64,000 nt of DNA from Antedon mediterranea (taxonomy: Eukaryota; Animalia; Echinodermata): the NCBI RefSeq assembly GCF_964355755.1, contig NC_092679.1, positions 12,755,432 through 12,819,431 of the forward strand, in the 5' to 3' direction. Below, piece by piece: positions 23,931-54,584 of the stretch. The notes beneath the pieces are model-generated. The model ran no database searches, was not told where the DNA came from, and saw only the letters and a list, made by a program, of their open reading frames with translations. How positions within the stretch are numbered: position 1 is the stretch's first letter; the number at the start of each line of letters is the position of its first letter. A program made the translations under genes and the position numbers.

Positions 23931-24169
23931 CAGCGGTGGGAGGCTGCAGGGGCTCTAGCCCCCTCGTTGGAGAGCCAAAGGCAAAAAGAGCCACTAGCTA
24001 GTTTTCTAAATTGTCTTAGCTCAGCCCCACTTTCGAGCTGGTCATAGATACTGTACTTACCGGTATACATTTCGTTTCATATTTCGAAGTATAATACAGT
24101 CAGTGCATTGTATGGGGACCTATAAGCTCTATTTAGGTGATCATTTAGAATAAAATGATCACATTCTTA

Positions 24170-25773
24170 TTAGTTATCCGCATTGAGCGGATAACTCCTT
24201 GTAACTGTCCTGTTTCATCATCTTTTTTTTTTTTTTTTTTCCCTGTATTCTTCTTTCTTTCTGTCATTTTTGTGTCTCGCGTAACTCAAAAACGTGTAAA
24301 CATAACATTTCATAACTTTGTCAACATGTGGGCATTTACGTGAAATTGTGCACCTCCTATTTTTGAATGACGTCAGAGTTGCGCAACATGACTTACGCGC
24401 GTTTTTCCGAATTTCGCGTATTTAACATAGATCGAAAACCATATAACTATTTAAATTGAAACTGAAAAAAAGTTTAAGTTATATCTTGCGCTAACTGACT
24501 ATGGGGAAAAAATGGCATGTTTCACACGAAGTTACGCGCGCACGCGCGTTTAAAATTTCAAATTGCGAAAAATCAATTTCTAATCATCTTTCTACGCGTT
24601 TCATGTCATTTTAAGCATGTAAAAAATTCCCACGCGCGCGCTTTTTTTTACGTGCGCGGTGCGAACGTAGCTTTGAAAACAATTTTTCTCCCGTGATTTA
24701 TATTTTCAAGCCTTTTATAGTAATTTTACCAACTTTGAAACAATTTCGACTTCAAATTACGTCATACGGGCACGTCGAATTGGATAATTTATGTGCGTTT
24801 TTGAGGAAAAAGTTCAAAAATTTGTCAAAATTATACCTTTTTTAAACAATCATAGATTCTAAACTACGAGGTGAACTTTGTTTAAATTACATATCCAGGA
24901 AGATGATAAGTTGTAGATAAGGAATCATGCATTGATATGGCAAACCGGACATTGTGACGTCATCGTATGGCCACGCGAATATAAAATATAGGATTTTTGT
25001 ATCTTTCGTCATAGCGCATCTCATTTAATAGAGTGCCTCTCCACTTATCCGTATTCCATTTTAACCCAGATTTTGAAATTTTCTAGGTCAATCAACTATC
25101 TTACGCAAGAGTAAATTTTTTTTAAATTTCTATGACATCATCATGTCTAAAAATGTAAATAACGTGGGTCACTTATATTTATCTTTACAGTAAATTTTAA
25201 TCTGTTATAGCTCATCAGAATAAAATGTGATAATCACGATTAAAACGTTTTCTGGAAGCTATTGGATTGTAGATACGAATTCATGTAAACATTTTGCCAA
25301 TCGGATGTTGTGACGTCATCATATGGCCAGTTGAATAAATAAAGACGTATTTTCATATTTTGCGTAATAGTTCATCACATTTAAAAGGGTGCGCATCTAT
25401 ATTTTACGTATTCAAATTTCTTCTACACGTTAATATGTTGTTCCTGAGATTATTTCCTTCTGAAATTGTTATCTAAGTGTTTCATTTTGATACCGTCGCC
25501 ATGTTAAAAATTGGAATAAATGGCGGGTCCCGTAATTTCACCTATTCTACACTGTATGTAATATGTATACAGATTATACTGTTTGCATGTACCGTATATA
25601 CTATATGACACAAAATTGACAGAATTCAGCACTAACAGCATATCATATTCTTCAGTTCTTGTCATAATTCCATAATCTTTATCTGTGTGCAATATTCCAA
25701 CTTATGACGTGCACGTGGCGTTTTGTCGTGGTGCGGATAACTAACTCGTCAATGTGACGAGTTTCATGTCTAG
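24170..25773 (+). mobile_element. HINE-type element H1 (A-type), uninterrupted
   Basis: Head AGTTATCCGC-attga-GCGGATAACT; tail GCGGATAACT, actcgtca-atg-tgacgagt, CTAG. Confidence 0.9.
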
Positions 25774-25844
25774 TTGGTTATCCGCAACGAAGTTGCAGGA
25801 TAACCTCTTGTGATTGTACGAAATCATCATCATCAACATCTTTT

Positions 25845-27432
25845 TTAGTTATCCGCACTCAGCGGATAACTCCTTGTAACTGTCCTGTTTCATCATCTTT
25901 TTTTTTTTTCTGTATTATTCTTTCTTTCTGTCATTTTTGTGCAGAGCATATCTCAAAAACGTGTAAAGTTAACATTTCATAACTTTGTCAACATATGGGT
26001 ATTCACCTGAAGTTGTGCTTTTCTATTTCTGAATGACGTCAGAATTGCACAACATGACTTACGCGCGTTTTAACGAATTTCGCGTATTTAACATACATCG
26101 AAAACCATATAACAATTTAAATTGAAACTTAACAAAAGTTTTAGTTATATCTTGCGCTAACTGACTTTGTAAAAAAAATGGCATGTTTTACACGAAGTTA
26201 CGCGCGCACGCGCGTTTAAAATTTCAAAACGCGAAAAATCAATTTCTAATCCACTTTCTACGCGTTTCATGTCATTTTGAGCAGGTAAAAAATTCCCACG
26301 CGTGCGCATTTTTTTACGCGCGCCGTGCGCACGTAGCGTTGAAAACAATTTTTTTCACGTGATTTATGTTTTTCCAGCCTTTTGTAGTAATTTTACCAAC
26401 TTTAAAAACGATTTAGACTTAAAATTACGTCATACGTGCACGTCGAATTGGATAATTTACGTGGGTTTTTGATGAAAAAGGTAAAAAATTCGTTAAAATT
26501 TGTCAAAATTATGCCTTTTTTTAAATAGTCGTAATTTCTAAACTGGACGGTCAACTTTTTGTGGATGACATATTCTTGAAGTTGATGAGGTGTAGATATC
26601 GGATCATGTAATAATATGGCTAACCGGACATTGTGACGTCATCGTATGGCCACGCGAATATAAAATATAGGATTTTTGTATCTTTCATCATAGCGCATGA
26701 CATTTAATAGAGCGCATCTCCAATTATCTGTTTTCCATTTTTACCCCGATTTTTATATTATCTAGGTCAATCAACTATCTTTCGTATGAGTTAAAAATAT
26801 TTTAATTTTTATGACGTCATCATGTCTAAAAATGTAAATAACGTGGGTCACTTATTTTCGTCTTTACAGTAAATTTCAATCTGTTATAGCTCGTCAGAAT
26901 AAAACGTGATAATCATGATTAAAACGTTTTCTGGAAGCTATTGGATTGTAGATACGAATTTATGTAAACATTTTGCCAATCGGATGTTGTGACGTCATCA
27001 TATGACCAGTTAAATAAAAAAAGTCGTATTTTCATCTTTTGCGTCATAATTCATCACATTTAAAAGAGCGCGCATCAATATTTTACGTATTTAAATTTCT
27101 TCTACACATTAATATGTTGTTGCCGAGATAATTTCCTTCCGAAATTGCTATCTTAGTATTTCATTTTGATACCGTCGCTATGTTAAAAATTGGAATAAAT
27201 GGCGGGTCCAGTCATTTCACCTATTCTACACAGTATGTAATATGTATACAGATTATATTGTATATAATACGACACAAAATAACAGAATTCAGCAATAACA
27301 ACATATCATATTCTTCAGTTCAGGTCATATTGCCACAATCTTTTTCTGTGTGCAATATTCTAACGTATGACGTCTACGTGGCCTTTGTCGTGCGGATAAC
27401 TAACTCGTCAAAGTGACGAGTTACATGTCTAG
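25845..27432 (+). mobile_element. HINE-type element H3 (A-type), uninterrupted
   Basis: A-type head and tail; near-identical to 35437-37024. Confidence 0.9.
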
Positions 27433-27572
27433 TTGGTTATCCGCAACGAAGTTGCAGGATAACCTCTTGTGATTGTACGAAATCATCATCTTTTTATTTT
27501 TGGTTATCCGCAACGAAGTTGCAGGATAACCTCTTGTGATTGTACGAAATCATCATCATCATCAACTTTTTA

Positions 27573-30500
27573 TTGGTTATCCGCAACGAAGTTGCAGGAT
27601 AACCTCTTGTGATTGTACGAAATCATCAACATCAACTTTTTATTGGTTATCCGCAACGAAGTTGCAGGATAACCTCTTGTGATTGTACGAAATCATCATC
27701 ATCATCATCATCATCAACTTTTTATTCTTCTTCTTTCTTTCTGTATGATTTTTGTGTAACGCTTTTCTCTAAAACTCGCAAACATAACATTTCGGTAACT
27801 ATGTTAACATTTTGACATTTATGTAACGTCGTCAAGCGAAGCTTTTCATGATGTTTACAATTGCGCAACGTGACGTACGCGCGATTTAACGATTTTCTCG
27901 TATCTAACATATGTCGAAAACCAAATAACATTTTAAAGTGAAACTTTGCAAAAGTTTAATTTATATCATGCGCTAACTTTCTGTTGAAAAAAAATTGCGT
28001 GTTTTACACAAAGTTACGCGCGCACGCGTATTTAAAATTTCAAAATGCGCAAATTTAATTTATAATCAACTTTCTACGCGTTTTATGTCGTTTTAAGCAT
28101 GTCAAAAATTCCCACGCGTGCGCACATTTTTACGTGTGCGGTGCGCACGTAGCATTGAAAACGTATTTTTTTCGCGTGATTTATGTTTTTCCAGCCTTTT
28201 CTAGCAATTTTACCAAATTTTAAACAATTTCGACTTAAAGATACGTCATACGAGCACGTCGAATTGGACAATTTGCGCGCGTTTTTTATGAAAAGGTTAA
28301 AAAATTCGTTTAAAATATGCCTTTTTTTAAACAGTCGTAATTTCTAAACTAGACGGTCAACTTTTTGTGGATGACATATTCTGGAAGTAGATGAGTTGTA
28401 GATATCGGATCAGGTATTAATATGGCTAACCGGACATTGTGACGTCATCGTATGGCCACGCGAATATAAAATTTAGGATTTTTGTATCTTTCGTCATAAC
28501 TCATCACATTGAATAGAGCGCATCTCCACCTATTCGTTTTCCATTTTCACCCTGATTTTGATATTGTCTAGGTCAATCAACTATCTTTCGCATGAGTTAA
28601 AAATATTTTAATTTTTTTGACGTCATCATGCCTAAAAATTTAAATCACGTGTGGCATCAATTTCATCTTTACAGTAAATTTTAATCTGTTATAGCTCGTA
28701 AGAATAAAATGTGATAATCACGATTAAAACTTTTTCTGGAAGCTATTGGACTGTAGATACGAAATTATGTAAAAATGTTGCCAATCGGATGTTGTGACGT
28801 CATCATATGGCCAGTTAAATAAAAAAGGTCGTATTTTCATCTTTTGCGTCATAATTCATTACATTTAAAAGAGCGCGCATCAATATTTCACGTATTCAAA
28901 TTTCTTCTACACGCTAATACGTTGTTGCTGAGATAATTTCCTTTCGGAATTGCTACCTTCGCGTTTTATTTTAAAACCGTCAACATGTTAAAAATTGCAA
29001 TAAATAGCAGGTCCCGTAATTTCACCTATTCTACACTGTATGTCACTGTATGTGATATGGATACAGAATATACTGTGTATACTATATATGAATTTAAATA
29101 ATAAAATTCAGCAATAACAACATATCATATTCTTCAGTTCAGATCATAATGCCAACGTGAACACTTCCTTTTGTCCTCAACCTATCCCCTTAATGTTAAT
29201 GTTGCACCACTTGCGCGGCGGATAACCAAACTCGTCAAAGTGACGAGTTACATGTCTAGTTTGTCTTCTTTCTTTCTGTATGATTTTTGTGGATCGCTTT
29301 TCTCTAAAACTTGCAAACATAACATTTTGTAACTTTCTCAACATATCGTCATGCACATGAAGATGTGCAGCGAAGCTTTTCATGATGTTTACAATTGCGC
29401 AACGTGACTTACGTGCGATTTAACGATTTTGTCGTATTTAACATAGCTTGACAACCAAATAACATTTCAACTTGAAACTTTGCAAAAGTTTAATTTATAT
29501 CATGCGCTAACTTTCTGTTGAAAAAAAATTGCGAGTTTTACACAAAGTTACGCGCGCACGCGCATTTAAAATTTCAAAATGCGCAAAATTAATTTATAAT
29601 CAACTTTCTACGCGTTTCATGTCGTTTTAAGCATGTCAAAAATTCCCACGCGTGCGCACATTTTTACGTGTGCGGTGCGCACGTAGCATTGAAAACGTAT
29701 TTTTTTCGCGTGATTTATGTTTTTCCAGCCTTTTCTAGTAATTTTACCAAATTTTAAACAATTTCGACTTAAAGATACGTCATACGAGCACGTCGAATTG
29801 GACAATTTGCGCGCGTTTTTTATGAAAAGGTTAAAAAATTCGTTTAAAATATGCCTTTTTTTAAACAGTCGTAATTTCTAAACTAGACGGTCAACTTTTT
29901 GTGGATGACATATTCTGGAATTAGATGAGTTTTAGATATCGGATCAGGTTTTAATATGGCTAACCGGACATTGTGACGTCATCGTCTGGCCACGCGAATA
30001 TAAAATTTAGGATTTTTTTATCTTTTGTCATAGCTCATCACATTGAATAGAGCGCATCTCCACTTCTCCGTTTTCCATTTTCACCCCGATTTTGATATTG
30101 TCTAGGTCAATCAACTATCTTTCGCATGAGTTAAAATTATTTTAATTTTTTTGACGTCATCATGCCTAAAAATTTAAATCACGTGTGGCATCAATTTCAT
30201 CTTTACAGTAAATTTTAATCTGTTATAGCTCGTAAGAATAAAATGTGATAATCACGATTAAAACTTTTTCTGGAAGCTATTGGATTGTAGATACGAAATT
30301 ATGTAAAAATGTTGCCCATTGGATGTTGTGACGTCATCATATGGCCAGTTAAATAAAAAAGGTCGTATTTTCATCTTTTGCGTCATAATTCATTACATGT
30401 AAAAGAGCGCGCATCAATATTTCACGTATTCAAATTTCTTCTACATGCTAATACGTTGTTGCTGAGATAATTTCCTTTCGGAAATGCTACCTTTGCGTTT

Positions 30501-30782
30501 CATTTTAAAACCGTCAACATGTTAAAAATTGCAATAAATAGCGGGTCCGTAATTTCACCTATTCTACACTGTATGTGATATGGATACAGATTATACTGTG
30601 TATACTATATATGAATTTAAATAATAAAATTCAGCAATAACAACATATCATATTCTTCAGTTCAGGTCATAATGCCAACGTGAACACTTCCTTTTGTCCT
30701 CAACCTATCCCCTTAATGTTAATGTTGCACCACTTGCGCGGCGGATAACCAAACTCGTCAAAGTGACGAGTTACATGTCTAG
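27573..30782 (+). mobile_element. HINE-type element H6 (G-type); body 29260-30782; hosts H7
   Basis: G-type head and headless G-type body. Confidence 0.8.
27643..29259 (+). mobile_element. HINE-type element H7 (G-type), uninterrupted, innermost
   Basis: Head GGTTATCCGCAAC-GAA-GTTGCAGGATAACC, (CAT)n; tail GCGGATAACC, hairpin, CTAG. Confidence 0.9.
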
Positions 30783-32307
30783 TTCTTCTTCTTTCTTTCT
30801 GTATGATTTTTGTGTAACGCTTTTCTCTGAAACTTGCAAACATAACATTTTGTTAACTATGTTAACATTTTGACATTTATGTAACGTCGTCAAGCGAAGC
30901 TTTTCATGATGTTTACAATTGCGCAAAGTGACGTACGCGCGATTTAACGATTTTCTCGTATTGAACATATGTCGAAAACCAAATAACATTTCAACTTGAA
31001 ACTTTGCAAAAGTTTAATTTATATCATGCGCTAACTTTCTGTTGAAAAAAAATTGCGTGTTTTACACAAAGTTACGCGCGCACGCGCATTTAAAATTTCA
31101 AAATGCGCGAAACTAATTTATAATCAACTTTCTACGCGTTTCATGTCGTTTTAAGCATGTAAAAAATTCCCACGCGTGCGCACATTTTTACGTGTGCGGT
31201 GCGCACGTAGCATTGAAAACGTATTTTTTTCGCGTGATTTATGTTTTTCCAGCCTTTTCATGTAATTTTACCAAATTTTTAACAATTTCGACTTAAAGAT
31301 ACGTCATACGAGCACGTCGAATTGGACAATTTGCGCGCGTTTTTTATGAAAAGGTTAAAAAATTCGTTTAAAATATGCCTTTTTTTAAACAGTCGTAATT
31401 TCTAAACTAAACGGTCAACTTTTTGTGGATGGCATATTCTGGAAGTAGATGAGTTGTAGATATCGGATCAGGTATTAATATGGCTAACCGGACATTGTGA
31501 CGTCATCGTATGGCCACGCGAATATAAAATTTAGGATTTTTGTATCTTTCGTCATAGCTCATCACATTGAATAGAGCGCATCTCCACTTATCCGTTTTCC
31601 ATTTTCACCCCGATTTTGATATTGTCTAGGTCAATCAACTATCTTTCGCATGAGTGAAAAATATTTTAATTTTTATGACGTCATCATGCCTAAAAATTGA
31701 AATCACGTGTGGCATCAATTTCATCTTTACAGTAAATTTTAATCTGTTATAGCTCGTAAGAATAAAATGTGATAATCACGATTAAAACTTTTTCTGGAAG
31801 CTATTGGATTGTAGATACGAAATTATGTTAAAATGTTGCCAATCGGATGTTGTGACGTCATCATATGGCCAGTTAAATAAAAAAGGTCGTATTTTCATCT
31901 TTTGCGTCATAATTCATTACATTTAAAAGAGCGCGCATCAATATTTCACGTATTCAAATTTCTTCTACACGCTAATACGTTGTTGCTGAGATAATTTACT
32001 TTCGGAATTGCTACCTTCGCGTTTCATTTTAAAACCGTCAACATGTTAAAAATTGCAATAAATAGCGGGTCCCGTAATTTCACCTATTCTACACTGTATG
32101 TGATATGGATACAGATTAGACTGTGTATACTATATATGAATTTAAATAATAAAATTCAGCAATAACAACATATCATATTCTTCAGTTCAGGTCATAATGC
32201 CAACGTGAACACTTCCTTTTGTCCTCAACCTATCCCCTTAATGTTAATGTTGCACCACTTGCGCGGCGGATAACCAAACTCGTCAAAGTGACGAGTTACA
32301 TGTCTAG

Positions 32308-33914
32308 TTGGTTATCCGCAACGAAGTTGCAGGATAACCTCTTGTGATTGTACGAAATCATCATCAACATCTTTTTCTTAATCTTCTTTCTTTCTGTATG
32401 ATTTTTGTGTAACGCTTTTCTCTAAAACTTGCAAACATAACATTTTGTTAACTATGTTAACATTTTGATATTTATGTAACGTCGTCAAGCGAAGCTTTTC
32501 ATGATGTTTACAATTGCGCAACGTGACGTACGCGCGATTTAACGATTTTCTCGTATTTAACATATGTCGAAAACCAAATAACATTTTAAAGTGAATTACT
32601 TTGCAAAAGTTTAATTTATATCATGCGCTAACTTTCTGTTGAAAAAAAATTGCGTGTTTTACACAAAGTTACGCGCGCACGCGCATTTAAAATTTCAAAA
32701 TGCGCAAAATTAATTTATAATCAACTTTCTACGCGTTTCATGTCGTTTTAAGCATGTCAAAAATTCCCACGAGTGCGCACATTTTTACGTGTGCGGTGCG
32801 CACGTAGCATTGAAAACGTATTTTTTTTGCGTGATTTATGTTTTTCCAGCCTTTTCTAGTAATTTTACCAAATTTTAAACAATTTCGACTTAAAGATACG
32901 TCATACGAGCACGTCGAATTGGACAATTTGCGCGCGTTTTTTATGAAAAGGTTAAAAAATTCGTTTAAAATATGCCTTTTTTTAAACAGTCGTAATTTCT
33001 AAACTAGACGGTCAACTTTTTGTGGATGACATATTCTGGAAGTAGATGAGTTGTAGGTATCGGATCAGGTATTAATATGGTTAACCGGACATTGTGACGT
33101 CATCGTATGGCCACGCGAATACAAAATTTAGGATTTTTGTATCTTTCGTCATAGCTCATCACATTGAATAGAGCGCATCTCCACTTATTCGTTTTCCATT
33201 TTCACCCCGATTTTGATATTGTCTAGGTCAATCAACTATCTTTCGCATGAGTTAAAAATATTTTAATTTTTTTGACGTCATCATGCCTAAAAATTTAAAT
33301 CACGTGTGGCATCAATTTCATCTTTACAGTAAATTTTAATCTGTTATAGCTCGTAAGAATAAAATGTGATAATCACGATTAAAACTTTTTCTGGAAGCTA
33401 TTGGATTGTAGATACGAAATTATGTAAAAATGTTGCCCATCGGATGTTGTGACGTCATCATATGGCCAGTTAAATAAAAAAGGTCGTATTTTCATCTTTT
33501 GCGTCATAATTCATTACATTTAAAAGAGCGCGCATCAATATTTCACGTATTCAAATTTCTTCTACACGCTAATACGTTGTTGCTGAGATAATTTCCTTTC
33601 GGAATTGCTACCTTCGCGTTTCATTTTTAAACCGTCAACATGTTAAAAATTGCAATAAATAGCGGGTCCCGTAATTTCACCTATTCTACACTGTATGTCA
33701 CTGTATGTGATATGGATACAGATTATACTGTGTATACTATATATGAATTTAAATAATAAAATTCAGCAATAACAACATATCATATTGTTCAGTTCAGGTC
33801 ATAATGCCAACGTGAACACTTCCTTTTGTCCTCAACCTATCTCCTTAATGTTAATGTTGCACCACTTGCGCGGCGGATAACCAAACTCGTCAAAGTGACG
33901 AGTTACATGTCTAG
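32308..33914 (+). mobile_element. HINE-type element H8 (G-type), uninterrupted
   Basis: G-type head and tail. Confidence 0.9.
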
Positions 33915-35436
33915 TTCTTCTTTCTTTCTGTATGATTTTTGTGTAACGCTTTTCTCTAAAACTCGCAAACATAACATTTCGGTAACTATCTTAACATATT
34001 GACATTTACGTAACGTCGTCAAGCGAAGCTTTTCATGATGTTTGCAATTGCGCAACGTGACGTACGCGCGATTTAACGATTTTCTCGTATTTAACATATG
34101 TTGAAAACCAAATAACATTTCAACTTGAAACTTCGCAAAAGTTTAATTTATATCATGCGCTAACTTTATGTTGAAAAAAAATTGCGTGTTTTACACAAAG
34201 TTACGCTCGCACGCGCATTTAAAATTTCAAAATGCGCAAAATTAATTTCTAATCAACTTTCTACGCGTTTCATGTCGTGTTAAGCATGTCAAAAATTCCC
34301 ACGCGTGCGCACATTTTTACGTGTGCGGTGCGCACGTAGCATTGAAAACGTATTTTTTTCGCGTGATTTATGTTTTTCCAGCCTTTTCTAGTAATTTTAA
34401 CCAATTTTAAACAATTTCGACTTAAAGATACGTCATACGAGCACGTCGAATTGGACAATTTGCGCGCGTTTTTTATGAAAAGGTTAAAAAATTCGTTTAA
34501 AATATGCCTTTTTTTAAACAGTCGTAATTTCTAAACTAGACGGTCAAATTTTTGTGGATGACATATTCTAGAAGTAGATGAGTTGTAGATATCGGATCAG
34601 GTATTAATATGGCTAACGGGACATTGTGACGTCATCGTATGGTCACGCGAATATAAAATTTAGGATTTTTGTATCTTTCGTCATAGCTCATCACATTGAA
34701 TAGAGCGCATCTCCACTTATCCGTTTTCCATTTTCACCCCGATTTTGATATTGTGTAGGTCAATCAACTATCTTTCGCATGAGTTAAAAATATTTTAATT
34801 TTTTTGACGTCATCATGCCTAAAAATTTAAATCACATGTGGCATCAATTTCATCTTTACAGTAAATTTTAATCTGTTATAGCTCGTAAGAATAAAATGTG
34901 ATAATCACGATTAAAACTTTTTCTGGAAGCTATTGGATTGTAGATACGAAATTATGTAAAAATGTTGCCAATCGGATGTTGTGACGTCATCATATGGCCA
35001 GTTAAATAAAAAAGGTCGTATTTTCATCTTTTGCGTCATAATTCATTACATTTAAACGAGCGCGCATCAATATTTCACGTATTCAAATTTCTTCTACACG
35101 CTAATACGTTGTTGCTGAGATAATTTCCTTTCGGAATTGCTACCTTCGCGTTTCATTTTAAAACCGTAAACATGTTAAAAATTGCAATAAATAGCGGGTC
35201 CCGTAATTTCACCTATTCTACACTGTATGTGATATGGATACAGATTATACTGTGTATACTATATATGAATTTAAACAATAAAATTCAGCAATAACAACAT
35301 ATCATATTCTTCAGTTCAGGTCATAATGTCAACGTGAACACTTCCTTTTGTCCTCAACCTATCCCCTTAATGTTAATGTTGCACCACTTGCGCGGCGGAT
35401 AACCAAACTCGTCAAAGTGACGAGTTACATGTCTAG

Positions 35437-37024
35437 TTAGTTATCCGCACTCAGCGGATAACTCCTTGTAACTGTCCTGTTTCATCATCTTTTTTTTTTT
35501 TCTGTATTATTCTTTCTTTCTGTCATTTTTGTGCAGAGCATATCTCAAAAACGTGTAAAGTTAACATTTCATAACTTTGTCAACATATGGGTATTCACCT
35601 GAAGTTGTGCTTTTCTATTTCTGAATGACGTCAGAATTGCACAACATGACTTACGCGCGTTTTAACGAATTTCGCGTATTTAACATACATCGAAAACCAT
35701 ATAACAATTTAAATTGAAACTTAACAAAAGTTTTAGTTATATCTTGCGCTAACTGACTTTGTAAAAAAAATGGCATGTTTTACACGAAGTTACGCGCGCA
35801 CGCGCGTTTAAAATTTCAAAACGCGAAAAATCAATTTCTAATCCACTTTCTACGCGTTTCATGTCATTTTGAGCAGGTAAAAAATTCCCACGCGTGCGCA
35901 TTTTTTTACGCGCGCCGTGCGCACGTAGCGTTGAAAACAATTTTTTTCACGTGATTTATGTTTTTCCAGCCTTTTGTAGTAATTTTACCAACTTTAAAAA
36001 CGATTTAGACTTAAAATTACGTCATACGTGCACGTCGAATTGGATAATTTACGTGGGTTTTTGATGAAAAAGGTAAAAAATTCGTTAAAATTTGTCAAAA
36101 TTATGCCTTTTTTTAAATAGTCGTAATTTCTAAACTGGACGGTCAACTTTTTGTGGATGACATATTCTTGAAGTTGATGAGGTGTAGATATCGGATCATG
36201 TAATAATATGGCTAACCGGACATTGTGACGTCATCGTATGGCCACGCGAATATAAAATATAGGATTTTTGTATCTTTCATCATAGCGCATGACATTTAAT
36301 AGAGCGCATCTCCAATTATCTGTTTTCCATTTTTACCCCGATTTTTATATTATCTAGGTCAATCAACTATCTTTCGTATGAGTTAAAAATATTTTAATTT
36401 TTATGACGTCATCATGTCTAAAAATGTAAATAACGTGGGTCACTTATTTTCGTCTTTACAGTAAATTTCAATCTGTTATAGCTCGTCAGAATAAAACGTG
36501 ATAATCATGATTAAAACGTTTTCTGGAAGCTATTGGATTGTAGATACGAATTTATGTAAACATTTTGCCAATCGGATGTTGTGACGTCATCATATGACCA
36601 GTTAAATAAAAAAAGTCGTATTTTCATCTTTTGCGTCATAATTCATCACATTTAAAAGAGCGCGCATCAATATTTTACGTATTTAAATTTCTTCTACACA
36701 TTAATATGTTGTTGCCGAGATAATTTCCTTCCGAAATTGCTATCTTAGTATTTCATTTTGATACCGTCGCTATGTTAAAAATTGGAATAAATGGCGGGTC
36801 CAGTCATTTCACCTATTCTACACAGTATGTAATATGTATACAGATTATATTGTATATAATACGACACAAAATAACAGAATTCAGCAATAACAACATATCA
36901 TATTCTTCAGTTCAGGTCATATTGCCACAATCTTTTTCTGTGTGCAATATTCTAACGTATGACGTCTACGTGGCCTTTGTCGTGCGGATAACTAACTCGT
37001 CAAAGTGACGAGTTACATGTCTAG
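35437..37024 (+). mobile_element. HINE-type element H9 (A-type), uninterrupted
   Basis: A-type head and tail; its incidental ORFs are identical to those of H3. Confidence 0.9.
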
Positions 37025-38710
37025 TCTTAATCTTCTTTCTTTCTGTATGATTTTTGTGTAACGCTTTTCTCTAAAACTTGCAAACATAACATTTTGTTAA
37101 CTATGTTAACATTTTGACATTTATGTAACGTCGTCAAGCGAAGCTTTTCATGATGTTTACAATTGCGCAACGTGACGTACGCGCGATTTAACGATTTTCT
37201 TGTATTTAACATATGTCGAAAACCAAATAACATTTTAAAGTGAAACTTTGCAAAAGTTTAATTTATATCATGCGCTAACTTTCTGTTGAAAAAAAATTGC
37301 GTGTTTTACACAAAGTTACGCGCGCACGCGCATTTAAAATTTCAAAATGTGCAAAATTAATTTATAATCAACTTTCTTCGCGTTTCAAGTCGTGTTAAGC
37401 ATGTCAAAAATTCCCACGCGTGCGCAAATTTTTACGTGTGCGGTGCGCACGTAGCATTGAAACGTATTTTTTTCGCGTGATTTATGTTTTTCCAGCCTTT
37501 TCTAGTAATTTTACCAAATTTTAAACAATTTCGACTTAAAGATACGTCATACGAGCACGTCGAATTGGACAATTTGCGCGCGTTTTTTATGAAAAGGTTA
37601 AAAAATTCGTTTAAAATATGCCTTTTTTTAAACAGTCGTAATTTCTAAACTAGACGGTCAAATTTTTGTGGATGACATATTCTAGAAGTAGATGAGTTGT
37701 AGAGATCGGATCAGGTATTAATATGGCTAACCGGACATTGTGACGTCATCGTATGGTCACGCGAATATAAAATTTAGGATTTTTGTATCTTTCGTCATAG
37801 CTCATCACATTGAATAGAGCGCATCTCCATTTATCCGTTTTCCATTTTCACCCCGATTTTGATATTGTGTAGGTCAATCAACTATCTTTCGCATGAGTTA
37901 AAAATATTTTAATTTTTTTGACGTCATCATGCCTAAAAATTTAAATCACGTATGGCATCAATTTCCTCTTTACCGTAAATTTTATTCTGTTATAGCTCGT
38001 AAGAATAAAATGTGATAATCACGATTAAAACTTTTTCTGGAAGCTATTGGATTGTAGATACGAAATTATGTAAAAATGTTGCCCATCGGATGTTGTGACG
38101 TCATCATATGGCCAGTTAAATAAAAAAGGTCGTATTTTCATCTTTTGCGTCATAATTCATTACATTTAAAAGAGCGCGCATCAATATTTCACGTATTCAA
38201 ATTTCTTCTAAACGCTAATACGTTGTTGCTGAGATAATTTCCTTTCGGAATTGCTACCTTCGCGTTTCATTTTAAAACCGTCAACATGTTAAAAATTGCA
38301 ATAAATAGCGGGTCCCGTAATTTCACCTATTCTACACTGTATGTGATATGGATACCGATTATACTGTGTATACTATATATGAATTTAAATAATAAAATTC
38401 AGCAATAACAACATATCATATTCTTCAGTTCAGGTCATAATGCCAACGTGAACACTTCCTTTTGTCCTCAACCTATCCCCTTAATGTTAATGTTGCACCA
38501 CTTGCGCGGCGGATAACCAAACTCGTCAAAGTGACGAGTTACATGTCTAGTTAGTTATCCGCACTATGGCGGATAACTCCTTGTAACTGTCCTGTTTCAT
38601 CATCTTTTTTTTTTTTTTTTTCTGTATTATTAGTTATCCGCTTAGTAGCGGATAACTCCTTGTAATCGTCCTGTTTCATCATATTTTTTTTTTTTTCTGT
38701 ATTATACTTA

Positions 38711-41700
38711 TTAGTTATCCGCTTAGTAGCGGATAACTCCTTGTAATCGTCCTGTTTCATCAAATTTTTTTTTTCTGTATTATTAGTTATCCGCTTAGTA
38801 GCGGATAACTCCTTGTAACTGTATGAAATCATCTTTTTTTTCTGTATTATTCTTTCTTTCTGTCAATTTTGTGTCTCGCGTATCTCAAAAACTTGTAAAC
38901 AAAACATTTTATAACTTTGTCAACATGTGGGCATTCACGTGAAATTGTGCACCTCCTATTGTGAATGACGTCAGAATTGCGCAACGTGATTTACGCGCGT
39001 TTTAACGAATTTCGCGTATTTAACATAGATCGAAAACCATATAGTAATTTAAATTGAAACTTAACAAAAGTTTAATTTATATCTTGCGCTAATTGACTGT
39101 GGGAAAAAAATGGCATGTTTCACACGAAGTTACGCGCGCAAGGGCGTTTAAAATTTCAAAATGCGAAAAATCAATTTCTAATCAACTTTCTACGCGTTTC
39201 ATGTCATTTTGAGCATGTCAAAAATTCCCACGCGCGCGCATATTTTTACTCGCACGGTGCGCACGTAGCGTTGAAAATAAATTTTTTTCACCTGATTCAT
39301 GTTTTTCCAGCCTTTTCTAGTAATTTTACCAACTTTTGAACAATTTTGACCTAAAACTACGTCATACGGGCACATCCAATTGGATAATTTACGTGCGTTT
39401 TTGATGAAAAAGTTCAAAAATTTGTCAAAATTCGTCAAAATTATGCCTTTTTTTAAACATTCATAGATTCTAAACTACGAGGTGAACTTTTTTTAAATTA
39501 TATATTCTCGAAGTTGATGAGTTGTAGATATGGAATAATGCATTAATATGGCTAATGGGACATTATAACGTCATCGTATGGCCACGCGAATATAAAATAT
39601 AGGATTTTTATATCTTTCGTCATAGCGCAACACATTTAATAGAGCGCATCTCCACTTATCCATTTTTTATTTTCAACCTGATTTTGATATTGTCTTGGTG
39701 AATGAACTATCTTTCGCATGAGTTAAAAATATTTTAATTTTTATGACGTCATCATGTCTAAAAATGTAAATAACGTGGGTCAACTATTTTCATCTTTACA
39801 GTAACTTTCAATCTGTTATAGCTCGTCAGAATAAAACGTGATAATCATGATTAAAACGTTTTCTGGAAGCTATTGAATTGTAGATACGAATTCATGTAAA
39901 CATTTTGCCAATCGGATGTTGTGACGTCATCATATGGCCAGTTGAATAAAAAAAGGCGTATTTTCATATTTTGCGTAATAGTTCATCACATTTAAAAGGG
40001 CGCGCATCTATATTTTACGTATTCAAATTTCTTCTACACGTTAATATGTGGTTGCTGAGATAATGTCCTTCCGAAATTGCTAACTTAGTGTTTCATTTTG
40101 ATACCGTCGCCATGTTAAAAATAAGAATAAATGGGGGGTCTCGTAATTTCACCTATTCTACACTGTATGCAACATGTATACAGAGTATACCGTTTGCACT
40201 GTATACTATACGACACAAAATAGACTGAATTCAGCACTAACAACGTATGATATTCTTCAGTTCAGGTCATAATGCCATAATCTTTATCTGTGTGCAATAT
40301 TCCAACGTATGACGTGCACGTGGCGTTTGTCGTGCGGATAACTAACTCGTCAAAGTGACGAGTTTCATGTCTAGTACTTCTTTCTTTCTGTCATTTTTGT
40401 GCGTCGCGTTTCTCTAAAACGTGTAAACAGAACATATCGTAACTTTGTCAACATATCGACATTTACGTGAACTTGTGCACCTCCTATTTTTGAATGACGT
40501 CAGAGTTGCGCAACGTGACTTACGTGCGATTTTATGAATTTCAATGATTGATCATAGACTAAAAACCAAACATAATTTTGTTTTGAAACTTTGTGAAAAT
40601 TTAAGTCATATCAAGCGCAAACTTTCTATGGATTAAAAATAGCATGTTTCACAAAAAGTTACGCGCGCACGCGCGTTTAAAATTTTAACGTGCGAAATAT
40701 TAACTTCTAATCAACTTTCTATGCGTTTCATGTCATTTTGAGCATGTCAAAAATTCCCACGCGCGCGAACATTTTTACGCACGCGGTGCACACGTAGCGT
40801 TAAAAACATATTTTTTTCGCGTGATTTATGTTTTTTCAGCCTTTTCTAGTAATGTTACCAAATTTTAAACAATTTCGACTTAAAATTACGTCATACGAGC
40901 ACGTCGAATTAGATAATTTGCACGCGTATTTGGTGAAAAAGTTAAAAAATTCGTCAAAATTATGCCTATTTTTAAACAGTCATAGATTCTAAACTACATG
41001 GAGAACTTTTTTTTAATTACATATTCTGGAAGTTGATGAGTTGTAGATATCGGATCATGCATTAATAAGGCTAACCGGACTTTGTGACGTCATCGTATGG
41101 CCACGCGAATATAAAATAGAGGATTTTTGTCTATTTCGTCATAGCTCATCACATTTAATAGAGCGCATCTCCACTTATTCGTTGTCCATTTTCATTCCGA
41201 TTTTAATATATTCTAGATCTATCAACAATCTTTTGCATGAATTAAAAATTTTTTAATTTTGTTAACGTCATCATGCCTAAAAATTTAAATTACGTTGGTC
41301 ATTAATTTCATCTTTACAGTAAATTTTAATCAGTTATGCCTCGTAAGAATAAAATGTGATAATCACAATTAAAACGTTTTCAGGAAGCTATTGTATTGTA
41401 GATACAAAATCATGTGTAAATTGTGCCAATCGAATGTTGTGACGTCATCATATGGCCAGTTAAATAAAAAAAGTCGTATTTTCATCTTTTGCATTATATT
41501 TCATTACATTTAAAAGAGCGCGCATCAATATTTCACGTATTCAAATTTCTTCTACACGTTAATACGTTGTTGCTGAGATAATTTCATTCAGAAATTTCTA
41601 CTTTTACATTTCATTTTGAAACCGTCAAGATGTTAAAAATTACAATAAAATACGGGTCCCGTAATTTCACCTATTTTACACTGTTTGTGATATGTATACA

Positions 41701-41881
41701 GATTGTACTGTGTATACTATATGACACAAAATAACAGAATTCAGAAATAACATATCATATTCTTCAGTTCAGGTCATAATGCCTTAATATTTTTCTGTGT
41801 GCAATATTCTAACGTATGACGTGCACGTGGCGTTTGTCGAGCGGATAACTAACTCGTCAAAGTGACGAGTTTCATGTCTAG
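38711..41881 (+). mobile_element. HINE-type element H12 (A-type); body 40375-41881; hosts H13
   Basis: Rejoined junction ctgtatta+tacttctttctttctgtc, which aligns without gaps to rejoined H11. Confidence 0.85.
38783..40374 (+). mobile_element. HINE-type element H13 (A-type), uninterrupted, innermost
   Basis: A-type head and tail. Confidence 0.9.
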
Positions 41882-44800
41882 TTTCCTTCCGTCATTTTTG
41901 TGCGTCGCGTTTCTCTAAAACGTGTAAACAGAACATATCGTAACTTTGTCAACATATCGACATTTACGTGAACTTGTGCACCTCCTATTTTTGAATGACG
42001 TCAGAGTTGCGCAACGTGACTTACGCGCGATTTTATGAATTTCAATGATTGATCATAGACTGAAAACCAAACATAATTTTGTTTTGACACTTTGTGAAAA
42101 TTTAAGTCACATCAAGCGCAAACTTTCTATGGATTAAAAATAGCATCTTTCACAAAAAGTTACGCGCGCACGCGCGTTTAAAATTTTAGAGTGCGAAAAA
42201 TCAACTTCTAATCAACTTTCTATGCGTTTCATGTCATTTTGAGCATGTCAAAAATTCCCACGCGCGCGAAACTTTTTACGCACGCGGTGCACACGTAGCG
42301 TTAAAAACATGCTTTTTTCGCGTGATTTATGTTTTTTCAGCCTTTTATAGTAATGTTACCAACTTTTAAACAATTTCGACTTAAAATTACGTCATACGAG
42401 CACGTCGAATTAAATAATTTGCACGCGTTTCTGATGAAAAAGTTTAAAAATTCGTCAAAATTATGCCTATTTTTAAACAGTCATAGATTCTAAACTACAT
42501 GGAGAACTTTTTTTTAATTACATATTCTGGAAGTTGATGAGTTGTAGATATCGAATCATGCATTAATATGGCTAACCGGACATTGTGACGTCATCGTATG
42601 GCCACGCGAATATAAAATATAGGATTTTTGTCTCTTTCGTCATAGCTCATCACATTTAATAGAGCGCATCTCCACTTATTCGTAGTCGATTTTCATCCCA
42701 ATTTTAATATATTCTAGGTCAATCAACTATCTTTTGCATGAATTAAAAAATTTTTAATTTTTTTAACGTCATCATGCCTAAAAATTTAAATTACGTTGGT
42801 CATTAATTTCATCTTTACAGTAAATTTTAATCTGTTATAGCTCGTAAGAATAAAATGTGATAATCACGATTAAAACGTTTTCAGGAAGCTATTGTATTGT
42901 AGATACAAAATCATGTGAAAATTGTGCCAATCGAATGTTGTGACGTCATCATATGGCCAGTTAAATACAAAAAGTCGTATTTTCATCTTTTGCGTTATAT
43001 TTCATTACATTTAAAAGAACGCGCATCAATATTTCACGTATTCAAATTTCTACTACACGTTAATATGTTGTTGCTGAGATAATTTCATTCTGAAATTTCT
43101 ACTTTTGCATTTCATTTTGAAACCGTCAAGATGTTAAAAATTACAATAAAATACGGGTCCCGTAATTTCACCTATTTTACACTGTTTGTGATATGTATAC
43201 AGATTGTACAGTGTATACTATGTATATGACACAAAATAACAGAATTCAGAAATAACAACATATCATATTCTTCAGTTCAGGTCATAATGCCTTAATATTT
43301 TTCTGTGTGCAATATTCTAACGTATGACGTGCACGTGGCGTTTGTCGAGCGGATAACTAACTCGTCAAAGTGACGAGTTTCATGTCTAGTTCTTCTTTCT
43401 TTCTGTCATTTTTGTGCAGAGCGTATCTCTAAAACGTGTAAAGTTAACATGTTATAACTTTGTCAACATATGGGCAATCACATGAAGTTGTGCTTTCCTA
43501 TAATTGAATGACGTCAGAGTTGCGCAACAAGACTTACGCACGTTTTTATGAATTTCGCGTATTTAACATAGATCGGAAACCATATAACAATTTAAATTGA
43601 AACTTAGCAAAAGTCTAATTTATATCGTGCGCTAACTTTTTATGCACTAAAAATGGCACGTTTTACACGAAGTTATGCGCGCACGCGCGTTTAAAATTTT
43701 ACAATGCGAAAAATCAATTTCTAATCAACTTTCTACGCGTTTCATGTCATTTTGAGCATGTCAAAAATTCCCACACGTGCGCAAATTTTTACGCGCGTGG
43801 TGCACACGTAGCTTTAAAAACGTCATTTTTTCGAGTGATTTATGTTTTTCCAGCCTTTTCTATTAATTTTACCAACTTTTAAACAATTTCGACTTCAAAT
43901 TACGTCATACGAGCACGTAGAATATGATAATTTGCGCGCTTTTTTGATGAAAAACTTCAAAAATTCGTCAAAATTAAGCCTTTTTTTAAACAATCGTAGT
44001 TTCTAAACTAAACGGTAAAAATTATTTTTATTACATATTCTGGAAGTTGATGAGTTGTAGATATCAGATCATGGATTAATATGGCTAACCGGACATTGTG
44101 ACGTCATCGTATGGCCACGCGAATATGAAATTTAGGATTTTTGTATCGTTCGTCATAACTCCTCACATTTAATAGAGCGCATCTCCACTTATCCGTTTTC
44201 CATTTTCACCCCAAATTTGATATTGTCTAGGTCAATCAACTATATTTAGCATGAGTTAAAAATATTTTAATTTTTATGACGTCATCATGCCTAAAAATTT
44301 AAATGACGTGTGGCATTAATTTCATCTTTACAGTAAATTTCAATCTGTTATAGCTCGTAAAAATAAAATGTGATAATCACGATTAAAACGTTTTCTTGAA
44401 GCTATTGGATTGTAGATACAAAATCTTGCCAATCGGATGTGGTGACGTCATCATATGGCCAGTTAAATAAAAAAAGTCGTATTTTCATATTTTGCGTCAT
44501 AGTTCATTACATTTAAAAGAGCGCGCATTAATATTTCACGTATTCAAATTTCTTCTACACGTTAATATGTTGTTGCTGAGATAATTTCCTTCCAAAATTG
44601 CTACCTTCGCGTTTCATTTTAAAACCATCAACATGTTAAAAATTGCAATAAATAGCGGGTCCCGTAATTTCCCCTATTCTACACTGTATGTGATATGTAT
44701 ACAGATTACACTGTGTATACTATATATGAATCAAAATAATAGAATTCAGCAATAACAACATATCATAGTCTTCAGTTCAGGTCATAATTCCATAATCTTT

Positions 44801-46753
44801 TTCCGTGTGCAATATTCCAACGTATGGCGTGGACGTGGCGTTTGTCGTGCGGATAACTAACTCGTCAAAGTGACGAGTTTCATGTCTAGTTATTTATTTC
44901 TCTCTGTACAGATTTTGTGTAACAAATATCTCAAAAAGTTTAATGTTAATGATTACCATAATTTCACAATGTCTTTCAAATACGTTAACTTAGTCCTAAT
45001 AAGCTTTTCAGCGTGATCACTCATCCGTGACGTCACGTATACGCCATTTTGTGAAATCACATTATCAATCATATCTCCATAATTCATTATCACATATTAA
45101 TGAAAATCACTACACGTAAACTTGAGGTCAAGATAAAAAATATTAGCAAATAAAAACTCGGGCGTTTCAAGGTCATGCGCGTGAAATCGCGCGTTGAAAT
45201 TTTAAAAAGCTCAAAATTTAGTTTTTATCAATTTAGAGCATGAAATAGGCCATTTGCGTGTTTAAAAAAATTACTGCGCAAAAACACATTTTTGCGCACG
45301 CGATTTTTAAAAAGGGTACAAAATAAAATTTGATGTATACATCATATTCTATTCACAATCCTTAGTACATTCTCCGACTTTGAGTCCATTCCGACTTAAA
45401 ATAACGCTATACGAGCACGTTAAAAATGACAAAATGCGCACATTAATTGTACAAAAGTGCTAAAAATGGTAAAAAAATAAGGCCTTTTTAAAATGAATAT
45501 AACTCTACAGAATGGCAGGTGACCCCCAATTTTTTTAACTTATTATGGAAGCCAATAAGTTGTAGATATAAATATATATACATATTAGACGTACAAAATG
45601 GTATGACGTCATCAAATGGCCACTTGAATTTAAAAATTAGTAATTATTATCTTTTTGTGTGGGTTATCACATTCAATAGAGCGCATCTCCGTTATTTGAG
45701 CCCAATTTTTGCACACATTTTAGTATGTGCTTGCTCAATTAATTATCTTTCTCATAAGTTGTCAACATTTTTATTTTGATGACGTCATCACGCGTAAAAA
45801 CTTGAATAACTTAGGTCGTGTAATTTCAGCTACACCATACATTTGAATATCTTATAGCTCCTCAGAATTAAAGGTGACCTTGAAGATTATAATTTATTAT
45901 GAAAGCTGATGAAATGTAGATATGAATTCATATAAAAATTAAGCCTATCGGATGTTGTGATGTTATCATATGGCCAGTTGAAGTTAAAAAGTAGTTTTTA
46001 AATTTCTTTAGTCGAAGTTATACAAATTTCAAAGAGCGCGCATTGCGCTTCTACGTGTCAAATTCTCTTCCAATCCTTATATTTTTTTGCTCAATTCATT
46101 ATCTTTCGAAATTGTCATCTTCGAGTTTATTTTGATAATTCCATCATACCAAAAAATTTTAACTTGATGTGTGTCCCATAATTTCACCTATGCTACACTG
46201 TATATAGATATACAGTATATACTGTACATTGTATATGGCATATAATAGGCATAACTCAGCAATATAAGCGTATAATAGGATGGCATACATCAACATTTTC
46301 CTATCGTATGTTAACGTACGTACATGTTTAAAAAAAATTAATTTCATTAAAATGATAAAAATGATCACCTATAATTCGTCAAAGTGACGAATTAAATTCT
46401 AGTTTTCAATTGTTTTTGTTTTAGCTCTATTTAACTCTATTTTTCTAAATGTTCTTAGTTCCATCCCAGCCTTGGTGGGCTGGTTCTCTGTAGACTTGTA
46501 ATTTTGTTTCTTATGTATAATTGCAATTTCCGGGGACCTAGCAGCCCATGGGTGTTAGTCTCGCGCATTTATAATTTCCATACCCCTAGGCAGCAACCAA
46601 CCTACGTCTCTTCTATTAACGATATACTATAATGGCTACCCTAAATCTGATTAAAACGGCTTCAAATTACGCTAGAACGCATAGCTTTCGGGGGCCCTTG
46701 GCGGCCCCCAGCATAGTGATGCTTGCATCACTCGCATAGCCCAACGCCCACCC

Positions 46754-48646: not shown

Positions 48647-51198
48647 ATTATCCACGAGACTGCACTGACATACTTGAAAGCAACAGTGAAGCAACAAGTG
48701 GTGCTTACATGATCAATATTCATGATGGAGGTGAACCATTCAGAGTTTACTGCGATATGGACACTGATGGAGGTGGATGAACGGTAGGTTTAATCAATAA
48801 GACACATAATATTCATGGATGCATATACATAAACTGGAGCAAGTTGGGTGGTCCTGTAATTAAGAGAATCTAAGTAGATCAGAAAATGAAATAATAAGCA
48901 AAACATTTTCTTTACCTCGAAACATTGCAGTATAGGAATAGTAAATTTTCAATATTCTTGCAATAAATGTACTAAATGTTAGCTTTCTATTACAATTATT
49001 ATTATTTTATGAAGGTTTTTCAGAGACGAGAAGATGGATCTATGAATTTCTATAGAAATTGGGCAGCATACAAGGTAGGGTTTCGGAATTTTAATGGTGA
49101 GCACTGGCTTGGTAATGATAACATTTATCGTCTTAGATCTGATGGTCACTTTGAATTGAGAGTGGGCATGTCAACATTTGAAGGAGGATCAGCATACGCT
49201 CACTATGACAACTTTCGAATAGGTGATGAGAGAAGTAACTACATACTGACATTTGGCACTTACAGTGGCAATGCAGGTAGGGTTTAGCTAATTATTGTCT
49301 AATGTTAAAGATGTATTGTCCCTTTGTCAAATTCCAAAAAAAATAAAAATAAAAAGATTTCGAAAAAAAGTGGGTCATTTTGAAGTATCATAATAGTTAT
49401 TAACTTTCACCAAAAATTAGTCGAAAAAAAAATCATTTAACTGAAATACAGACGTTTTTTGGTTAAAAAAATAACTTTGACTTCCAGTCAAAGTTTTCGA
49501 TCAAAACATATCTTATAATACAATGCGCTAATTTGGCTACTCTGTATGCATAATCATAAAACTTCCTCGCGATCTGTGTGAAAACACCTTCTCAACTGTG
49601 ACGAGTTGTAAACAATCCTAATTAGCATCATGCATAATGTATACTCATGGTTTGAAATCTTTGTTTACTTTCGCTCACGACTATTTTCAGACGAAATGTA
49701 ATCAAATTAATTTAGCTGTTAATTACGTAAAATTGTTGTTTTTGGCTCGAATTTTCGACTTAAAGTGAATAACTTTAATATTACTTTGATATGGCCAATT
49801 AAAATTTTTTCATTCATTTTTTTGTGTTTCAAGGGACAATATTATTTAATGTTCCCACCTAACTCTCATACTTCTTTAATCCACACTTTTCAATTATCTG
49901 ATGATCTTTTATCCTACCGTTTCTAGTTCGTTTCATACTTTTATGTGTTTTTATTAATTTCTTGAGTGTGTAGAAAACTGTCCGTTGTTTCACTCCCGCA
50001 CTGCTTGTCAGAAATGTCTTTCATACGCAACATTTTTCTTTGGCATATAATAAAAATTCAGCGCTTCTGGTTCTTTTTCATACATGTCATCTTCTTTTGT
50101 CAATATTTCAAATAATTGCTACACACCTTCTCTTCGCTGTATGTAGTAAAATCATGGAGTACTCCATAGTAAAATAGCCCTGTCTGCTGATTATTTTCTA
50201 CATTCTACCATTATATATAACTCAAATGCCAAGAGCTTGGCTATATCTGTCATTTCGAAACTAGGGATTGAGTTTACTTAAAAAGCCACAATTTATATAT
50301 AATTTTTATATATAAAAAACCTTTTGTAAAGTAATGGTTTTTGCTTCACTTTGATATTTATTTGTTATAATTCAATGTAAACTAATATTTAATTAATTGA
50401 TATTTGTATACCCATTTGTACTGTCTTAGTAGTTAACAATTGTACTGTCAACACAGCCTTGTATAGTAACACCAAATAATAGTGAAACAAACTATTGTGT
50501 TTAAAGAAAGTTATAATAATAATAATAAAAATAAAATAATAATAATAATACCACCAACTTACTATTTATTACTATTTAACATCTATATTCAGTTTACTAA
50601 CAAATTGACTTGATTTCTTTAATATTTCATATAACGACACTTTATCTTCCACACGATTTATATACTATATATATATAACATGTTTTTATTCTTCATAAGG
50701 TAGAGTTACTTTAATTTTATTATTGAGGATATTACGTTATATGAGTGCCATGCACTCCTAAAATGCATGTTTTATGCAGGAGATCCGATCAATAGTCACC
50801 TCTCTAGCTCTAAGGATTGAAATTGCTATACTACATCATCAATAATATTCCTCATTTCAAGTATAGGGCCTATTAATAATTAATTTTCAATGATTGCATA
50901 AAAAAACAAATTTTGTATCAAGGTAATTAAAAAAAATGATTTTATTTTAGGAGACTCATTGGCGGAACATAACAATCAAAAGTTTTCAACATTCGACCAA
51001 GACAATGACTCGTCTTCACGATCATGTGCTGTGGATTTCAAAGGAGCCTGGTGGTATGGTTCCGATCATGATTCAAATCTGAATGGATTGTACTTGGGTG
51101 GTATAAATAGTCAGTCTCACCAAGGTGTGATTTGGGCACATTATAAAGGAGATTACTACTCCTTGAAAACTACTGTGATGAAGATACGTAGAGTTTAA
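48647..51198 (+). pseudogene. FReD copy D: exons 48647-48783, 49015-49276, 50951-51198; exon 1 not found
   Basis: Canonical GT/AG and phases. TGA at 48778-48780 replaces Trp of GGWT. The P-domain Cys is lost (WWYGSDH). Confidence 0.85.
49309..49845. mobile_element. Kolobok-like MITE (TTAA TSD) in copy D intron 3
   Basis: ttaa-agatgtattgtccctt ... aagggacaatattat-ttaa. Confidence 0.7.
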
Positions 51199-54556: not shown

Positions 54557-54584
54557 GCCACACGTGAAGTTTTTAGAATCAGAC

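Follow-up and report, generated by a model that had tools for sequence, protein, structure and literature searches.

The 64,000-nucleotide window examined here, positions 12,755,432 to 12,819,431 of contig NC_092679.1 of Antedon mediterranea (GCF_964355755.1), has a G+C content of 32–35%, and its 24.1–46.4 kb interval is filled by an array with a 1.5-kb period. The array consists of copies of one family of non-coding, Helitron-like elements of approximately 1.6 kb, which begin with TT and a 5' hairpin, carry asymmetric inverted repeats and end with a 3' hairpin and CTAG. The copies lie inside one another as a balanced nest, and wherever one copy has entered another it has done so in the pyrimidine-rich tract just behind the 5' hairpin of the host.

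Rebuilt to full length, the 14 copies span 1551–1617 bp and fall into three subtypes: seven of type A, six of type B and one of type C, the last approximately 60% identical to A and B. The 5' TT and the inverted repeats are present in all 14, and all 14 3' ends read CTAG. The inverted repeats are 12–13 nt long and complementary within each subtype, and the 3' copy stops about 29 nt before the end of the element. The 5' repeat forms part of the 5' hairpin (folding z -4.45 for C, -6.68 for A and -5.49 for B heads), each of the 14 tails carries a 3' hairpin on the downstream side of its 3' repeat (the two tails that were folded gave z -2.44 and -6.34), and the tracts behind the 5' repeat are made of (CAT)n, poly-T and (TTC)/(TTTC).

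Fourteen copies in a balanced nest

Motif scans located 13 A/B heads and 14 tails, together with a divergent C head just upstream whose inverted repeat matches the last tail. When these ends are read as brackets, 24132–46402 parses as a nest of 14 heads (H) and 14 tails (T) with nothing left over, in the order H0(H1 T1, H2(H3 T2, H4(H5(H6(H7 T3)T4)T5, H8 T6)T7, H9 T8)T9, H10(H11(H12(H13 T10)T11)T12)T13)T14. The copies and the example features referred to below are as follows.

24132–46402 (start at 24132 or 24133), plus strand: H0, the outer element and extent of the whole nest, type C; head 24132–24169, body and tail 44890–46402
24137–24162, plus strand: 5' hairpin of H0 with the C-type inverted repeat, z -4.45; host cut 7 nt behind the hairpin
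24170–25773, plus strand: H1, type A, unsplit, in H0
25774–38550, plus strand: H2, type B, in H0; head 25774–25844, body 37025–38550
25845–27432, plus strand: H3, type A, unsplit, in H2; identical to H9
27433–35436, plus strand: H4, type B, in H2; head 27433–27499, body 33915–35436
27500–32307, plus strand: H5, type B, in H4; head 27500–27572, body 30783–32307
27573–30782, plus strand: H6, type B, in H5; head 27573–27642, body 29260–30782
27643–29259, plus strand: H7, type B, unsplit, in H6, the deepest level
32308–33914, plus strand: H8, type B, unsplit, in H4, flush behind H5
35437–37024, plus strand: H9, type A, unsplit, in H2, flush behind H4; identical to H3
38551–44889, plus strand: H10, type A, in H0, flush behind H2; head 38551–38629, body 43390–44889; rejoined junction in public contigs
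38553–38578, plus strand: 5' hairpin of H10 (example), the 5' inverted repeat pairing just downstream, z -6.68
38579–38629, plus strand: landing tract of H10 (example), pyrimidine-rich, predicted to be unpaired on the plus strand, ending at the cut
38630–43389, plus strand: H11, type A, in H10; head 38630–38710, body 41882–43389
38711–41881, plus strand: H12, type A, in H11; head 38711–38782, body 40375–41881; empty and filled junction in public contigs
38783–40374, plus strand: H13, type A, unsplit, in H12; reference copy for the public-contig alignment
40334–40374, plus strand: 3' end T10 (example), with the 3' inverted repeat, a hairpin with a 9-bp stem and CTAG

In all 14 pairs assigned by the brackets (7 A, 6 B, 1 C) the 5' repeat of the head and the 3' repeat of the tail are complementary. 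The concordance of head and tail type gave p=4e-5 by label shuffling, and p=0.0036 for the eight pairs that are truly separated. Head distance followed body distance with a rho of 0.86, and 8 of the 40,320 reassignments of the eight split bodies did as well; within subtypes head distance was no significant predictor of body distance, and because 41 of 144 within-type permutations were as good, the correlation is mostly a signal of type. Of the eight rejoined junctions scored against unsplit copies, three were uniquely best (H2, H5 and H4), two tied and three were not best, and the summed score was reached by 116 of the 40,320 reassignments; this test is uninformative for H0 and H11, which have no unsplit copy of their own subtype. 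The rejoined H2 and H5 junctions each match an unsplit copy at 40 of 40 nt. A first-pass annotation of the stretch had remarked that the rejoined H11 and H12 align without gaps, which duplication of heads alone would not easily produce, and this was borne out: the two are gapless over 26 nt with three mismatches, and exchanging their bodies duplicates sequence in one copy and removes 6 nt from the other. Hosts and guests are 59–97.5% identical; that a donor copied itself into its own head was ruled out, because in no case do guest and host have the same sequence.

H3 and H9 are identical across 1588 bp and bracket the more diverged H4 nest of B copies, which carry 9–36 private substitutions each; given their identity, the pair possibly records a single event. 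The private substitutions of the B copies (13, 13, 17, 36, 13 and 9) show no gradient with depth, and those of H5 and H8 do not differ significantly (p=0.17) and do not give the order of insertion at flush junctions.

Contigs of four of the 14 public runs listed (X2, X10, X11 and X12, of which X10 and X12 are one sample) were aligned to H13. These records are short contigs, none of which was seen to span the array, and the alignment is dominated by internal variants; 15 of 189 joints, and 12 of the 140 rows of a second joint table, are listed. Behind 38849, an inserted TAC reproduces the rejoined H12 empty site exactly, and an inserted TTC that of H10. The H12 empty site has a depth of 12,500 in X10 and 3,259 in X12 and is absent in X11 and X2, and that of H10 has depths of 12,093 in X10, 50,748 in X11, 737 in X12 and 37 in X2. 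The filled H12 junction (CTAG, then TAC and the body) is present at depths of 3,847 and 565, which is 24% and 15% of filled plus empty. Joints from CTAG to a head T run, in forms not found in the window, reach depths of 1,130 in X10 and of 4,675 and 1,267 in X11, and among the rows listed five joints begin at the terminal CTAG, every one of which leads into the head tract; two of these forms are missing from the window. The longest listed pieces mostly have depths of 15–31 in X12 and 105–254 in X11; if these represent single-copy depth, the CTAG-to-T-run joints would amount to some 20–40 copies, which may go back to a single amplified event or to headless arrays. Contigs crossing element ends number 329, 221, 107 and 12 in the four runs, so many other flanks exist.

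Heads and tails balance within each type (7/7, 6/6 and 1/1) and close in last-in-first-out order, the H2 head and a body 11 kb away rejoin perfectly over the 40 nt compared, H11 and H12 complement each other, and neighbouring A copies, at 85–97% identity, are no duplicates. At the nest these data largely refute an account without insertions, in which heads were duplicated by slippage and headless bodies were amplified by rolling circle or unequal exchange. Tandem truncated Helitron arrays and duplicated 5' ends have been published (PMC5148889; here and below, statements on published work refer to excerpts of the cited papers), the non-significant within-type correlation and the five junctions that are not uniquely best would suit such an account, and some multi-copy tail-to-body joints in the contigs could come from headless arrays, yet we consider it very improbable. 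An assembly artefact of a repeat-rich region is barely credible, given that 13 of the 14 copies are distinct in sequence, that misassembly would not yield a balanced and type-concordant nest, and that the filled H12 junction is found in public contigs; the exact equality of H3 and H9 and the short contigs, with no array-spanning record among them, are what speak for it. The nest itself is very probably real.

Several features of the element bodies were observed in addition. Bodies, for example at 39505–40003, have a degenerate internal periodicity of 178/356 bp, in which the motif TGACGTCA recurs. A and B bodies are approximately 80–95% alike in mid-body and 65–72% alike at both ends, a pattern that suggests module exchange. 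The start of the H6 body (29260–29500 region) holds a patch of private substitutions, mostly within the first 300 alignment columns, and is probably a mosaic with another subfamily. An 18-bp inverted repeat (24259–24276 and 25607–25624) pairs a block that directly follows the landing tract with a second site some 165 nt short of the 3' end; it matches at 17 of 18 positions in H1 and 16 of 18 in H13 and is weak in five other copies. Being good in only two of the seven copies checked, it was dropped as a guide for insertion.

Landing positions and the tract behind the 5' hairpin

The 13 inner copies use eight host sites, at offsets of 38, 71, 67, 73, 70, 79, 81 and 72 nt within their hosts, and the other five lie flush against a sibling (gap 0, CTAG|TT junctions). 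The first-pass annotation had counted 13 nested insertions at about 38 or 67–81 nt; its distances stand, while its 13 sites reduce to eight host sites and five flush siblings. It had also stated that the AT-rich body is never entered, and indeed none of the 13 inner copies lies within any host body (0 of 8 host sites). In the six elements counted, host positions 30–90 account for 4.4–7.0% of the W|T sites on the plus strand and for no more than 11.8% of the TW|T sites, and eight of eight hits within these positions have a p from 1e-13 to 4e-8, depending on the null (uniform over W|T or TW|T). All 13 inner copies have the same orientation, and on the minus strand no family match longer than 60 nt occurs within the window.

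At nine of nine readable sites the longest flanking direct repeat is 0–3 nt, in agreement with the earlier statement that there is no target site duplication (TSD). Seven of these sites are A|T and two are T|T, or six and three if H0 starts at 24133, and the empty site of H12 in public contigs has a single T after A. The annotated rule that sites read A|T or T|T holds for these nine; at the five flush junctions the dinucleotide is not independently readable (an insertion on the 5' side would read A|T or T|T, one on the 3' side G|T). H0 itself is hosted by an unrelated repeat with units of approximately 117 bp (23998–24131 and 46403–46545), which has paralogues on the other strand at 54575–54853. 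These paralogues supply a near-empty site for H0 and suggest a start at 24133. The 100 nt upstream of the H0 insertion fold no better than shuffles (z -1.6).

No intact family copy is present in the 41.7 kb of flank, where the matches are decayed fragments without ends. Those at 12–488 and 21076–21432 are decayed internal fragments of a family relative, approximately 68–80% identical and with no ends seen, and both adjoin the upstream side of paralogous fibrinogen-C exons.

The distance from the hairpin to the cut ranges from 7 to 53 nt (standard deviation (SD) 14.2, or 6.8 without H0), a spread that rules out a fixed-distance ruler from the hairpin. The distance from the cut to a downstream CTGT block, conserved in A, B and C, is 7–18 nt (SD 3.3), and cut motifs are shared despite different repeat-tract lengths, as in H10 and H12 (offsets 79 and 72) and in H5 and H6 (73 and 70). 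The C head, with an inverted repeat of different sequence, took in three A/B copies, so the landing pad is not defined by the sequence of the subterminal inverted repeat (subTIR). Simple duplex melting was also ruled out, as 22–100 of the 257–293 other sites melt more easily than the used sites. Under single-strand folding only 0–5 of the 257–293 other sites are as unpaired as those used, and in predicted whole-element folds of four hosts the cut falls in a long unpaired stretch behind the 5' hairpin.

Tracts of similar composition were left unused elsewhere. Those with at least 16 T and at least 22 pyrimidines in 30 nt number 23 in bodies (p=8e-5) and 53 in the flank (p=3e-6), and adding unpairedness to this filter leaves 18 flank tracts (p=0.0015); bodies contain 101 tracts, and the flank 261, in which 12 or more of the 20 nt downstream are T. 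Since matched body and flank tracts were unused, something about the head probably matters. Because the thresholds come from the used sites, the events share one locus and the flanks include exons, these p values are guides. With respect to the earlier proposal that insertion is directed beside a resident head, nesting in trans and a strong head-tract bias are upheld; that each arrival supplies a new target is confirmed, 8 of the 14 heads having been hit.

Related elements and neighbouring sequence

The ends of the elements satisfy the structural definition of Helitron2 (PMC3627910). Helitron2/HLE2 elements (Bao and Jurka 2013, PMC3627910; Li et al. 2024, PMC11417382) share with the nest family asymmetric inverted repeats of 8–15 bp, a 5' hairpin that includes the 5' repeat, a 3' repeat just upstream of the 3' hairpin, a 5' T, the lack of a TSD and repeats that covary between subfamilies. 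The repeats of the nest family lie at the Helitron2 positions (5' copy 0–2 bp and 3' copy approximately 20–30 bp from the end), and both hairpins and the absence of a TSD likewise agree. The family departs in its CTAG end and in its target, only two or three of nine sites being T|T and the rest A|T; T|T is a tendency with listed exceptions in Helitron2/HLE2 (PMC3627910, PMC11417382). No preference for the element's own head is described in the excerpts on these elements. Xenopus HelenXT233 has two different left ends in direct repeat (PMC11417382). Helitron1/HLE1 elements have a 5' TC and no inverted repeats, unlike the present copies, and the CTAG end and A|T target are common to both.

HINE/DINE-1 Helentrons (Thomas et al. 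2014, PMC4067079; oyster Cg_HINE, PMC7492417) resemble the nest family in having a 5' subTIR and inverted repeat with a microsatellite-like tract behind, central degenerate repeats, a 3' subTIR and palindrome, T-rich targets and no TSD; the microsatellite after the 5' repeat and the central tandem repeats are both found here. HINEs insert in TT, end in T runs and have an endonuclease-bearing partner, whereas the nest family ends in CTAG (14 of 14), and nesting into the microsatellite tract is not described in the excerpts. The Phytophthora proto-Helentron (PMC4067079, PMC11417382) shares the 5' TT, the 3' CTAG, insertion at A|T and the absence of a TSD. It is a 14-kb coding element with another arrangement of stem-loop and repeats.

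The closest published parallel to the stacking is FoHeli of Fusarium oxysporum (Chellapan et al. 2016, PMC5148889; PMC13342296), in which stacked 5' ends of 31–85 nt, up to five per copy, were ascribed to self-insertion; the target is TNAT followed by T/A. One Metarhizium case was read as insertion into the 5' end or as rolling circle (PMC5148889, PMC13342296). The extra FoHeli heads are mostly without bodies and self-insertion is their proposed origin, whereas every head in the nest retains its body, and consequently the nesting, its order and the rate of 0 of 8 in bodies are open to direct reading in three subfamilies. Double insertion at a preserved target (McGurk and Barbash 2018, PMC5932611), where re-use of one site builds tandem or multi-ended elements, and nested maize Helitrons (PMC3288121) have similar outcomes but rely on TSD-preserved host sites or on unspecific nesting, while the target in the nest is borne by the element. 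An AT preference is also reported in PMC13286980. In the excerpted literature we found no account of a preference for the own head tract or of a balanced nest; supplements, such as Fusarium Table S6, may hold such loci.

Around the nest, plus-strand exons of fibrinogen-C domains at 602–892, 20597–21828, 48976–51195 and 57770–59475 form a tandem gene cluster. Two foldback-like elements are located at 11400–15050 and 53740–54530, with arms that are inverted arrays of 15-bp and 14-bp units. Frames of endonuclease and reverse transcriptase of the long interspersed nuclear element type occur at 4086–7412 (minus strand), and Gypsy-type reverse transcriptase, RNase H and integrase frames at 61773–63929 (plus strand). 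Of the 104 window frames of at least 70 aa, 72 were scanned and none had a Pfam match to RepHel, the other 32 lying in simple-repeat arrays or inside elements; a sub-cutoff Pfam match in a low-complexity frame over the heads was dismissed. A tail 30-mer gave no matches in metagenome collections, and a tail 15-mer gave 119 loci there, none with a blastn match to the elements, which are hence chance matches. The tail scan gave no hits in prokaryote genomes or in viral contigs.

The resident 5' end as a candidate target

Beyond the dinucleotide and AT-richness, how Helitron-type elements choose and open their targets is poorly known (PMC4778049). HUH nucleases cut only single-stranded DNA, and in the Helraiser model transposition starts with a 5' nick and the displacement of one strand; Helraiser prefers an AT target with an AT-rich 3' flank and forms head-to-tail circles (all PMC4778049). 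We propose, with a probability of roughly one half, that RepHel opens a resident copy at its 5' end and integrates the newcomer into the strand thereby exposed, and that the nest was built in this way. RepHel transposase supplied in trans would engage the resident 5' end, whose plus strand would fold its 5' hairpin and leave the pyrimidine tract behind it unpaired. The incoming copy would then be joined at A|T or T|T within the unpaired tract (eight sites), with local sequence fine-tuning the position, or alternatively at the resident's own 5' nick, likely the case for the five flush junctions. As every arrival brings a new head, the nest would deepen. Tethering of RepHel at the hairpin or subTIR, as favoured in the first-pass annotation, would be one version of this activated-5'-end mechanism, but the data do not single out the hairpin; the annotation's interpretation as a whole is partly supported. 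The safe-harbour strategy that it proposed would be an evolutionary reading of the nest.

Several points weigh against this proposal. The evidence comes from one locus, no transposase was found in the frames scanned (72 of 104), and the mechanism is drawn by analogy with Helraiser, whose 701 new insertions were not clustered near donor sites (PMC4778049). Re-use of a 5' nick alone does not explain identical H3 and H9 around the more diverged H4 nest, an arrangement that calls for insertion at G|T, for local copying or conversion, for a composite built beforehand or for a duplication in the assembly. The composition filters were set from the used sites, and unpairedness is confounded with pyrimidine content. 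With the strictest filter (18 T and 25 pyrimidines in 30 nt) only three flank tracts are left (p=0.58), and a filter of 45 pyrimidines in 60 nt leaves one body and 12 flank tracts (p=0.47 against bodies), a level that just 3 of the 8 used sites reach. Moderate T-richness is thus insufficient for the head bias, while a steep preference for extreme pyrimidine tracts could suffice.

A preference for sequence or structure only, by which W|T sites in long unpairable pyrimidine tracts are chosen and the head simply has the best tract, regenerated with each insertion, would dispense with any enzyme or hairpin bound at the resident. At all nine readable sites, that of H0 in its unrelated repeat included, 12 or more of the following 20 nt are T, the cut tracks local motifs in the H10/H12 and H5/H6 pairs, and the scarcity of flank tracts at the strictest level fits as well. 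T-rich preferences are also published for HINEs (PMC4067079, PMC7492417) and Helitron2 (PMC3627910), and site preference is a proposed cause of dimers of transposable elements (PMC5932611). Half of the used sites (4 of 8), however, have just 16–17 T in 30 nt, a grade at which the 23 body and 53 flank tracts were passed over, the strict pyrimidine filter is reached by 3 of 8 only, and five copies are exactly flush with a sibling; we therefore regard this account as rather unlikely, though one to be taken seriously. It is improbable that a hot spot at the locus (chromatin, replication or local copying) attracted the family and an ordinary T preference picked the base. Thirteen copies at one locus, the identity of H3 and H9, and the insertion of maize Helitrons near other Helitrons (cited in PMC12477314, PMC3288121) would be in keeping with a hot spot, but it sits poorly with the absence of intact copies from the 41.7 kb of flank and of any from the bodies, and with tail-to-head-tract joints, absent from the window, at multi-copy depth in contigs of two organisms.

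More tentatively, and in general form, targeting of the activated resident 5' end may be a property of HLE2-type RepHel, with the rolling-circle origin serving as the landing pad and being recognised by shape across subfamilies that are only some 60% alike. If true, such a rule would account for balanced nests, for dimers joined flush head to tail, for the multiple 5' termini in Fusarium and for the double left end of Xenopus HelenXT233. The nest, in which every body has been kept, records target choice directly and delimits a candidate target of 60 nt. It also means that insertion alone can give rise to a satellite-like 1.5-kb array, and that such loci are misannotated when heads or tails are counted separately. 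Should the activated-head rule hold, it would provide a portable, self-renewing landing pad for the ordered insertion of DNA in eukaryotes.

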